DNA from: Chloroflexota bacterium
GTDB lineage: Bacteria; Chloroflexota; Dehalococcoidia; Bin125
Length of the DNA: 64,000 bases
Direction: 5' to 3'
Assembly: GCA_026705025.1 (NCBI GenBank)
Contig: JAPPBN010000026.1
Span: forward strand, 74,446-138,445
Part shown: piece by piece, positions 37,760-39,309 of the stretch
Position numbering within the stretch: position 1 is the stretch's first letter
Layout: each line of letters opens with the position of its first letter
Translations under genes and position numbers: made by a program
Notes under the pieces: model-generated
Seen by the model: only the letters and a program-made list of their open reading frames with translations
Databases searched by the model: none
What the model was told of the DNA's origin: nothing

Positions 37760-39309
37760 GCCGAAGACGCCTGATCATCTTCGCCACACTCGCCTTCGCG
37801 GTCTTCGGTTTCTTCGTTGTCCGCGCACCTGCGCCGGTCATCGCCCTGGCGGCGGAGCCGGTGATCTCGATCGGTTCCTACGAAATCACCAACACGATCC
37901 TCTCGGCCTGGGTCGTGATCTTGCTGCTGGCCATCGCGGCGTTCGTCGTCTGGCGGCGGACGCGGGACGTTGAGACCGCGCTGGTTCCGTCAGGTTTCCA
38001 GAATCTGGTTGAGGCGATTTACGAGGCGTTCCTGGGCATCTCGCAACAGGTCGGCGGCGAGCGCAACGGCAAGAAGTTCTTCCCCTTCGTCTTCACGATC
38101 TTCATCTTCCTGCTGATCGGCAACTGGTTCGCGCTCTTCCCCTGGAACAACGTGATCGGTCCGGTCGAGAACTACCGCTACCACTATCTGCACGAGATGG
38201 AGGTCTCGGTGATGGAGGTGGTCGAGGACCTTGAGGAAGGTGAGCGCAGCCTGTCCGACGGCGAGATCGACGCCATCAACGACGCGTTTGGCAACGCGTT
38301 CTTCGAACCGATCCCGTTCAAGGTCGACAAGCAGGACAAGTCGGATGAGATCATCCACAAGATCCGCAAGCATCACCTGACCGACACGGAGTTCGCGGTC
38401 CGCAGCGAATTCTGGACCAACCCGATTCCGTACGGCACTGACGGCGCAGACCTGGTTCACGAAATCGAGTCGCGGCTGGAAGCGGCCGGGATTGTCGACG
38501 AGGGCCACCACGAGCTGGAATACGCGATGGTCTTCAACCTGCCTATCGTGGCCGGCGACGCCGAGTTGGTCAAAGCGACCGGACCGATCCTTTCCGGCGA
38601 CGGTTTCAAGATCATCCCGCCCCGCACGTTGTTCGCCGAGACGCGGGACTTTTCCTATGACGCGTTTGCAGAGCCGCTGGTGATCGAGCCGGGCGCCGAC
38701 GGCAGCGTCGCGCAGCTCTGCCTGATCGAGTGTGAAATCGCAATTGGCGACTTCGAACCAGCGGTCGTGCCGACCACGGTCAACACAGCGCACCTGGGCT
38801 TCATCCTGAGAATGGAAGAGAAGGGCTACGTTGACGAGGCAACCGGTGAAACCACCGGTACCGTCGGCCACATCTTCCCCATCTTCCGAGCCCTGGCTTC
38901 CGATGTGAACCTGCCCCTGGCGCTCGCACTCTGGTCGTTCCTCGCGGTGCAGTACTTCGGCATGCGCGGGGTCGGGATCGGCGCGAACTTCGGCAAGTAC
39001 ATCGGCGTTGGCTCGCACGCGATCGTCAAGGGTCCGATGGGGGTATTCGTCGGAATCCTGGAAATCGTTTCCGAGGTCGGACGCGTGATCTCGTTCACCT
39101 TCCGTCTGTTTGGCAACATCTTTGCCGGCGAAGTGGTGCTGTTTATCTCGATGTTCCTGGTCGCCTTTGTGGTGCCGACGGTGTTCTTCGGACTTGAGGT
39201 CTTCGTCGGCTTCATCCAGGCGTTCGTCTTCGCCATGCTGACGCTCGTGTTCGCTTCGACCGCTGTCGGCGACCACGACGAGCACCATGACGAGGCGGCA
39301 GAACACTAG
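37756..39309 (+). CDS. atpB: F0F1 ATP synthase subunit a with a ~230-aa hydrophilic insertion
   Basis: 517 aa. N-terminal [12 protein letters not shown] and C-terminal [13 protein letters not shown]...[12 protein letters not shown] (conserved Arg) match subunit a. Residues ~150-385 have no counterpart in canonical subunit a. Confidence 0.85.

Follow-up and report, generated by a model that had tools for sequence, protein, structure and literature searches.

The atpB gene described here encodes an F-type ATP synthase subunit a of 517 aa which carries a folded, strongly acidic insert of ~240 residues between helices aH3 and aH4 (the transmembrane helices TM2 and TM3 of the older numbering). The gene lies in a 64 kb stretch of DNA from a Chloroflexota bacterium of the class Dehalococcoidia (assembly GCA_026705025.1, contig JAPPBN010000026.1, positions 74,446 to 138,445 of the forward strand), the whole of which is called the window below and provides all coordinates given. 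Few parts of the rotary ATP synthases are as conserved and as minimal as subunit a and, to our knowledge, every bacterial structure solved shows it with an almost bare outer face. Here, the insert very probably is an additional domain of subunit a that faces the periplasmic (P) side of the membrane at the proton inlet, a placement that draws mainly on homology to the enzyme of Chloroflexus aurantiacus. If it does sit at the proton entrance, this 27-kDa domain would be the largest embellishment that we found described for a bacterial subunit a.

A subunit a divided by a folded insert

In the list of open reading frames (ORFs) atpB is one uninterrupted 517-aa frame; it starts with GTG, in a 4-nt overlap with the stop of the preceding atpZ-like gene, and lies within an F1Fo operon where it adjoins the genes for subunits c and b. 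The Pfam family PF00119 (ATP-synt_A) matches the product with 136.9 bits (cutoff 33.9) in two stretches flanking the insert, the better of which covers residues 373-500 (profile positions 77-216). NCBIfam models match at about residues 38-130 and 373-510, and no subunit-a profile matches residues 131-372. Since the insert splits the profile match, the protein misses every NCBIfam equivalog cutoff, the best scores being 130.3 against 227 for NF004481 and 97.4 against 102.6 for TIGR01131. Related proteins with this architecture likewise fall below these cutoffs; in the databases some are called ‘hypothetical protein’ and the others ‘F0F1 ATP synthase subunit A’. A preliminary description of this DNA, made by eye, had read atpB as a 517-aa subunit a with a large insertion, and the intact ORF with its divided profile match bears this out.

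The closest relative in the PDB by sequence (E 2.3e-40), and also by structure, is subunit a of C. aurantiacus (9ITJ series), with residues 3-138 of the atpB product aligning to 6-136 of the Chloroflexus chain and residues 372-511 to 179-310. The best structural matches of the full-length AlphaFold2 (AF2) model are likewise the Chloroflexus a-subunit chains (E ~1e-6; target-normalised TM-score 0.51-0.56). The N-terminal core comprises a transmembrane helix (3-21), a short periplasmic hairpin (35-45), a second transmembrane helix (46-70) and a cytoplasmic amphipathic segment, before aH3 at ~106-130, which ends in GNWFALFPW. Residues 1-25 (37756-37830, + strand) form an extra hydrophobic helix, RRR followed by 17 hydrophobic residues, which resembles a signal peptide but has its counterpart, by alignment, in the N-terminal transmembrane helix seen in the Chloroflexus structure. 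The essential arginine is R450 in the FRLFGN motif of aH5; together with N454, E459, E481 and E436, which also belong to the core, it aligns to R249, N253, E258, E280 and E235 of Chloroflexus, and all five residues are invariant in 87 of 87 sequences aligned. With the proton-path residues all present, alignment shows the atpB product to be a functional-looking subunit a.

The insert spans residues ~131-372 (38146-38871). Residues 41-129 align to 23-108 of the M. tuberculosis subunit a chain in the PDB and residues 367-511 to 112-250; the atpB product therefore has ~237 residues where that of M. tuberculosis has 3. The insert contains 48 Asp and Glu residues against 16 Lys and Arg, 10 His and 2 Cys (C322 and C326), giving a net charge of -32, and has no hydrophobic segment, the maximal 19-residue Kyte-Doolittle mean being 1.23. 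The insertion had previously been placed at 38170-38860 (residues 139-368) and called hydrophilic, acidic and soluble; the present boundaries are slightly wider but delimit the same object, and its composition agrees with that account. The earlier alignment to E. coli likewise put the insert in the right place, although the E. coli block quoted for aH3, LLGNLMDLLP, requires correction to what we take to be ...VFLMNLMDLLP.

Modelling of the full protein with 87 homologues by AF2 gave a predicted local distance difference test score (pLDDT) of ~90 over residues 140-280 and 300-370, while the insert modelled alone with 31 sequences reached a mean pLDDT of 88.1 and a predicted template modelling score (pTM) of 0.87. 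These models show the insert as a module predicted to fold independently into two subdomains, a six-helix bundle and a small β/α unit. The β/α subdomain holds FNLPx, G276, G283, P288, D298-F299, E306 and the C322/C326 pair, with four strands (273-323), a TVNTAH motif at 341-346 and a helix at 342-355. A disordered acidic linker was considered and is rejected by the AF2 confidence and by the conserved motifs. The parts of the gene, with the basis of each assignment, are as follows.

37756..39309, + strand: atpB, F-type ATP synthase subunit a, 517 aa (Pfam and NCBIfam profiles, PDB alignments, AF2 model)
37756..38145, + strand: N-terminal core, residues 1-130 (alignment to Chloroflexus 6-136, hydropathy, predicted secondary structure)
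38146..38172, + strand: N-terminal stem of the insert, residues 131-139 (N131, N132 and G135 invariant; short β-strand at 137-139)
38173..38541, + strand: helical subdomain of the insert, residues 140-262 (six predicted helices, pLDDT ~90-96)
38542..38853, + strand: β/α subdomain of the insert, residues 263-366 (AF2 models, conserved columns, homology to the medium-length inserts discussed below)
38854..38886, + strand: C-terminal stem and entry into aH4, residues 367-377, TVGHIFPIF (strand at 368-373; entropy 0.53)
38887..39270, + strand: C-terminal core with aH4, aH5 and aH6, residues 378-505 (alignment to Chloroflexus)
39271..39306, + strand: cytoplasmic acidic/His C-terminal tail, residues 506-517 (conservation; similar ends in PDB chains)

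Within the tail, which lies on the cytoplasmic (outlet) side, H507 is invariant and H510 and H517 are nearly so. The preliminary description had noticed this His/Asp-rich end, which is indeed present and is a trait that bacterial a subunits have in common: the Chloroflexus chain ends in ..GHDEEH and that of M. tuberculosis in ..EEEHH, and we rejected the tail as a special feature since it is common to the Chloroflexus and Mycobacterium chains.

Probable location of the insert at the periplasmic proton inlet

Residues P129-L380 correspond to the linker between aH3 and aH4 of the Chloroflexus subunit, Pro127-Pro187, and the alignment boundaries therefore place the insert exactly in this linker. 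In C. aurantiacus the linker bears a ‘unique insertion sequence (His142-Thr172)’ of 31 residues that is partly disordered (Zhang et al., PNAS 2025, PMC12002316). A disulfide between Cys135 and Cys173 staples it at the periplasmic surface, and His and Asp residues of the linker, next to the inlet half-channel, start the proton path (PMC12002316). The two proteins thus share the insertion point, its periplasmic side, the phylum and the best core match by sequence and by structure, as well as the extra N-terminal helix and the acidic/His C-terminus. They differ in that the Chloroflexus insertion is short and partly disordered whereas the ~240 residues found here are predicted to form a compact two-subdomain structure on a β-strand stem. 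The disulfide staple is absent, P136 standing at the position of Cys135, and no sequence similarity is detectable within the inserts themselves.

The assignment of the insert to the P side receives further support from the positive-inside pattern of the flanking loops, with RRTRD following the second transmembrane helix, and from the strong negative charge of the insert itself. Moreover, the number of cysteines is 0, 2 or 4 in 77 of the 77 long inserts compared (those of related proteins with the same architecture), as expected of disulfide pairs in an oxidising compartment, which again supports the outer side. The preliminary description had deduced an outward-facing insert from the topology of E. 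coli subunit a, and the periplasmic Chloroflexus linker, the charge pattern and the even cysteine counts uphold that deduction.

The Chloroflexus enzyme is further distinguished by a double stalk and two a subunits (α3β3γεδ2a2b4c10), and its δ subunit has an N-terminal domain shortened by ~20 residues that permits a δ dimer (PMC12002316). The δ subunit encoded in the window aligns end to end with residues 6-176 of Bacillus PS3 δ, while the Chloroflexus δ (157 aa) aligns only at its residues 70-154, to 90-176. Because this hallmark, a shortened δ, is absent, we do not propose a two-a-subunit architecture of the Chloroflexus type for the present enzyme.

Acinetobacter baumannii, too, has additions to subunit a that are specific to its lineage and alter the route of proton entry or the a/c interface (PDB 7P2Y; PMC8849298). 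These insertions, however, are short segments in the N-terminal region and in a loop of the proton-exit channel and include no folded domain. In the literature we found no description of a large folded domain in a Chloroflexota subunit a, only the Chloroflexus paper having turned up. The earlier statement that the insertion had not been described consequently stands for the ~240-residue folded domain and fails for the site, where the 31-residue Chloroflexus insertion was reported in 2025. Intermediate inserts of ~60-145 residues are, moreover, frequent in other Dehalococcoidia. The insertion site is therefore a known hotspot; what is new is a ~240-residue folded version with an orphan fold, and the insertion reported as unique to Chloroflexus represents the small end of a phylum-wide hotspot.

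An orphan domain confined to atpB

An exhaustive phmmer search of 1.84e9 representative proteins with the insert returned 14 matches, all of them long-form atpB proteins or fragments of these except one, P0127, a low-complexity N-rich repeat protein that we rejected as spurious. No Pfam family matched the insert at E<=10, domain scans of 31 individual inserts found no known domain, and comparison with the PDB by sequence and by profile gave no match. A Foldseek comparison of the insert model with solved folds yielded nothing significant (best E 1.3). As its matches are restricted to this gene, the domain is thus an orphan; this is the outcome of the homology search with the insert alone that the preliminary description had called for.

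The long architecture (500-545 aa) occurs in >100 protein clusters defined at 90% identity, with 44-98% identity. It is also found in 32 genomes, each representing a species and bearing the title Dehalococcoidia or Chloroflexota; among them are several megabase-scale records titled ‘chromosome’. The insert is present in every member found. Many of the source metagenome-assembled genomes (MAGs) bear isolate names which we take to be those of sponge-derived samples. Together, the sequence searches show the module to be confined to atpB of a marine lineage of the Dehalococcoidia. The gene neighbourhood as a whole is kept down to the most divergent subfamily (44-50% identity), with genes for OMP decarboxylase, DUF951, MFS, a BFN-domain protein and atpZ upstream, then a, c, b and δ, followed by α, γ, HAD, β, ε and EPSP synthase.

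Codon-level comparison with close relatives gave ratios of nonsynonymous to synonymous substitution (dN/dS) of 0.03-0.16 for the insert and 0-0.07 for the C-terminal core, the values for the insert climbing to 0.3-0.46 at larger distances, and these ratios indicate that the insert is under purifying selection. The G+C content at third codon positions (GC3) is 0.83 in the insert against 0.83-0.87 in the core. Because the source is a short-read MAG contig, an artefact of assembly or annotation might be suspected, for example chimeric joining of contigs, fusion of a neighbouring gene through a frameshift, or an intein or mobile element within atpB. The insert region is identical to that of GenBank contig VXQZ01000011.1 (MAG ‘Chloroflexi bacterium SB0664_bin_20’). 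The same ORF recurs, however, in 32 independent species-level genomes and >100 clusters, with conserved synteny, low dN/dS and equal GC3, so that misassembly, frameshift fusion and recent foreign insertion are excluded for practical purposes, and we consider the chance of an artefact negligible. An intein or mobile element was rejected in particular, given the lack of any Pfam match and hence of an intein or transposase domain, the host-like GC3 and the selection on the insert as protein. The embedded nature of the domain, as first described, thereby holds, and the misassembly check proposed with it is answered by the independent genomes.

Charge, conservation and growth of the insert

The acidity of the insert is a consistent property of the family. 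In each of the 77 long inserts the net charge falls between -21 and -44 (mean -32.7) and the isoelectric point is 4.05-4.62, around 4.3, with ~9 His, and the ten medium-length inserts examined carry net charges of -11 to -19. Per residue, the charge of the insert is -0.136 compared with about -0.04 to -0.06 for the soluble proteins of the window, one small cytoplasmic protein of which is nearly as acidic. Of the acidic columns no more than 12 reach >=80% conservation; it is therefore bulk charge rather than particular carboxylates that selection maintains, as an electrostatic role would lead one to expect.

The near-invariant positions are N131, N132, G135, R141, E149, N175, F178, P185, I186 and I200 in residues 131-200, V215, R216, F219, P223, R240, A244, N261 and P263 in residues 215-263, and G276, G283, P288, D298, F299, E306, N343, T344, H346, G348 and G357 in residues 276-357. 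The entropy of the insert is 1.5-1.7 against 0.4-0.6 for the core, both stems being as conserved as the transmembrane helices. Cysteine pairs are present in 45 of the 77 long inserts and absent from the other 32. One subclade (P0027-P0036 and P0068 among the retrieved proteins) has a ~20-residue loop after the first insert helix with its own pair (..VVCELQGE...VVCEGS.., columns 31-50), bringing the total to four cysteines, a further sign of disulfide-stabilised extracytoplasmic surface loops.

Among the retrieved proteins the distance from the end of aH3 to the start of aH4 is bimodal, at ~70-145 and ~230-275 residues, with three outliers near 330. The medium class consists of 330-420-aa atpB proteins of other Dehalococcoidia and Chloroflexota in the same operon context, with inserts of ~60-145 residues (for example P0114, P0109 and P0272, the last being GBD14814.1 of ‘bacterium HR25’); these are annotated only as subunit a, and we found no description of them in the literature. 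The medium insert aligns to the β/α part of the long insert with an hhalign probability of 92.8% (E 4e-7), a score that includes a contribution of shared flank residues. As only the downstream part is covered, the long insert appears to be the medium scaffold with a helical bundle of ~125 residues added. The two classes share the site, the operon context, the acidic and His-rich composition and homology in the β/α subdomain, and differ in the helical bundle, which the medium form is without. The three outliers (P0060, P0066 and P0067, 595-601 aa) have an extra E/A-rich, repeat-like and coiled-coil-looking segment of ~85 residues nested in a loop of the helical subdomain around 245-252, which extends the linker to ~330 residues. 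The domain appears to have grown stepwise at an insertion hotspot specific to Chloroflexota, from 31 residues in Chloroflexus through ~60-145 and ~235-270 to ~330 residues, with the medium inserts corresponding to the β/α unit and the helical bundle added in the long form.

A possible proton-collecting cap

The chain would emerge from the membrane through one stem of the insert and return through the other, in both cases at the rim of the periplasmic inlet half-channel, and the domain is therefore most likely to be a cap or vestibule above the proton entrance. Arguments about a ‘proton antenna’ have so far drawn for the most part on kinetics. At pH 8 the supply of protons to Fo is held to be diffusion-limited, and for that reason a ~40 Å H+ antenna at the input channel was postulated (Wraight 2006, as discussed in PMC8754430), while the Fo inlet of E. 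coli is a funnel lined with carboxylates and imidazoles (PMC8754430). By analogy, the surface of the cap may provide an enlarged proton-collecting antenna whose carboxylates and imidazoles would raise the local proton concentration and pass protons on to the water chain of the inlet, the benefit being ATP synthesis at seawater pH (~8) and low proton-motive force (pmf) in a slow-growing marine organism. The likeness to the E. coli funnel lies in the periplasmic entrance of the input half-channel and in a clustered Asp/Glu/His chemistry; the difference is that the funnel is built of short subunit-a loops and the N-terminus of subunit b, whereas here a dedicated 27-kDa domain would be its putative equivalent. 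Of the roles considered, the antenna mechanism is the one that we favour, though tentatively and as a possibility rather than an expectation.

Several observations count against it. The position of the domain relative to the channel is itself a prediction. The proteome of the organism is acidic overall, so part of the charge of the insert may be background, and among its most conserved residues structural or polar ones (N, G, P, F, three Arg and one His) prevail over acidic ones. A 27-kDa two-subdomain fold exceeds what a cloud of charge needs, which suggests an additional or different role. Furthermore, as far as we know, most bacteria living at pH 8 do so with no comparable domain.

The strongest competing explanation is a role in structure or assembly, in which the domain would brace the stator from outside by contacting the rim of the c-ring, the N-termini of subunit b, the N-terminal hairpin of subunit a or neighbouring enzymes, its acidity being incidental. 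We hold this to be somewhat doubtful as well, yet it accounts naturally for the large, confidently predicted fold with its packing-type motifs (PIP, AVRxxF, FNLPL and TVNTAH) and for stems as conserved as transmembrane helices, and the lineage-specific lumenal additions of mitochondrial ATP synthases are mostly structural. In Chloroflexus the disulfide staple keeps the shape of the aH3-aH4 hairpin, so that geometry at this site matters (PMC12002316). On the other hand, no partner was identified, the operon has no extra subunit gene, and bacterial Fo functions without a brace on the P side. A brace also leaves unexplained why extreme negative charge is so uniform across a divergence to 44% identity and extends to the medium inserts.

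Gating, docking and neutral growth are less likely than either. As a gate or sensor, the domain would reversibly occlude or open the inlet half-channel in response to external pH, to redox state through the Cys pair or to metals through His and carboxylates, so that at low pmf no protons are wasted by leakage or pumped at the cost of ATP. The position at the inlet, the conservation of H346 in 99% of sequences, the polar residues N131, N132, N261, N343 and T344 and the paired cysteines of 45 of the 77 sequences are all compatible with this; but the absence of cysteines from the remaining 32 means that redox control cannot be general, reduction of the Chloroflexus linker disulfide with dithiothreitol (DTT) left activity unchanged (PMC12002316), and the sequence and structure searches of the insert detected no known sensor fold, which makes a gate unlikely. 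Slightly less credible still is a docking platform that ties the enzyme to S-layer or wall polymers of the envelope, or else to a partner in respiration, and thereby localises proton circuits. Exposure on the outer face would favour it, as would surface loops that tolerate nested expansions (P0060, P0066 and P0067), typical of outward-pointing structures, whereas the insert scans gave no recognisable SLH or LysM envelope-binding domain and the neighbouring loci hold no conserved candidate gene for a partner. Neutral expansion of a permissive loop would agree with the very variable insert lengths at this hotspot, with the higher entropy of the insert relative to the core and with the rise of dN/dS at larger distances. 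It is hard to reconcile with the low dN/dS among close relatives, with ~30 near-invariant positions that persist over divergence to 44% identity, with the confident fold prediction and with the retention of the insert in every member found, and we regard it as the least probable of these roles.

If the proton-collecting cap is correct, the long insert could be the first discrete domain to embody the long-postulated H+ antenna of Fo and let energy-limited marine Chloroflexota make ATP at a lower threshold of pmf or pH, and the length series could record its stepwise evolution; this broader reading is a speculative one which we think rather improbable as it stands. In the family, nature has provided an experiment on how Fo is supplied with protons when the pH is alkaline and the driving force low, and its interest for ATP-synthase specialists would be greater if an antenna role were demonstrated.

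The atp operon and its neighbourhood

The order of the operon is canonical, atpZ-a-c-b-δ-α-γ-(HAD)-β-ε, and its genes besides atpB are as follows.

37466..37759, + strand: atpZ/atpI-like small membrane protein (ATPase_gene1), 97 aa (PF09527, E 7.4e-10; position kept in related loci)
39399..39647, + strand: atpE, c subunit, 82 aa (PF00137, E 3.6e-18)
39748..40248, + strand: atpF, b subunit, single copy in the operon (PF00430)
40258..40797, + strand: atpH, δ subunit, 179 aa, full length (OSCP profile positions 2-172 of 172)
40820..45870, + strand: rest of the operon, atpA to atpC (profile matches; order the same in the related loci L035 and L037), comprising the next five genes
40820-42346, + strand: atpA
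42400-43278, + strand: atpG
43282-43959, + strand: HAD hydrolase
43984-45393, + strand: atpD
45427-45870, + strand: atpC

By inspection, the c subunit sequence is devoid of the Gln and Ser/Thr constellation of Na+-binding c-rings, as established for the site of the Ilyobacter tartaricus c-ring, and protons are therefore the likely coupling ion. A scan of the whole 64 kb window against Rfam gave no family at gathering score, whether tRNA-like, rRNA or riboswitch.

The gene for a HAD-superfamily hydrolase between atpG and atpD has counterparts in L035 (13546-14208) and L037 (13647-14360), and its placement within the F1 part of the operon is kept even in the most divergent long-form relatives. 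Directly upstream of atpZ-atpB lies a gene (36821-37351, + strand) for a very acidic protein with a bifunctional-nuclease domain (BFN_dom), found at the same position in L035, L036 and L037. Five MFS transporter paralogues (MFS_1/MFS_3) stand in tandem at 14270-22741 (+ strand), one of them a 941-aa protein of two fused MFS units (18453-21278), and an additional MFS gene (35174-36721, + strand) is located just upstream of the atp locus.

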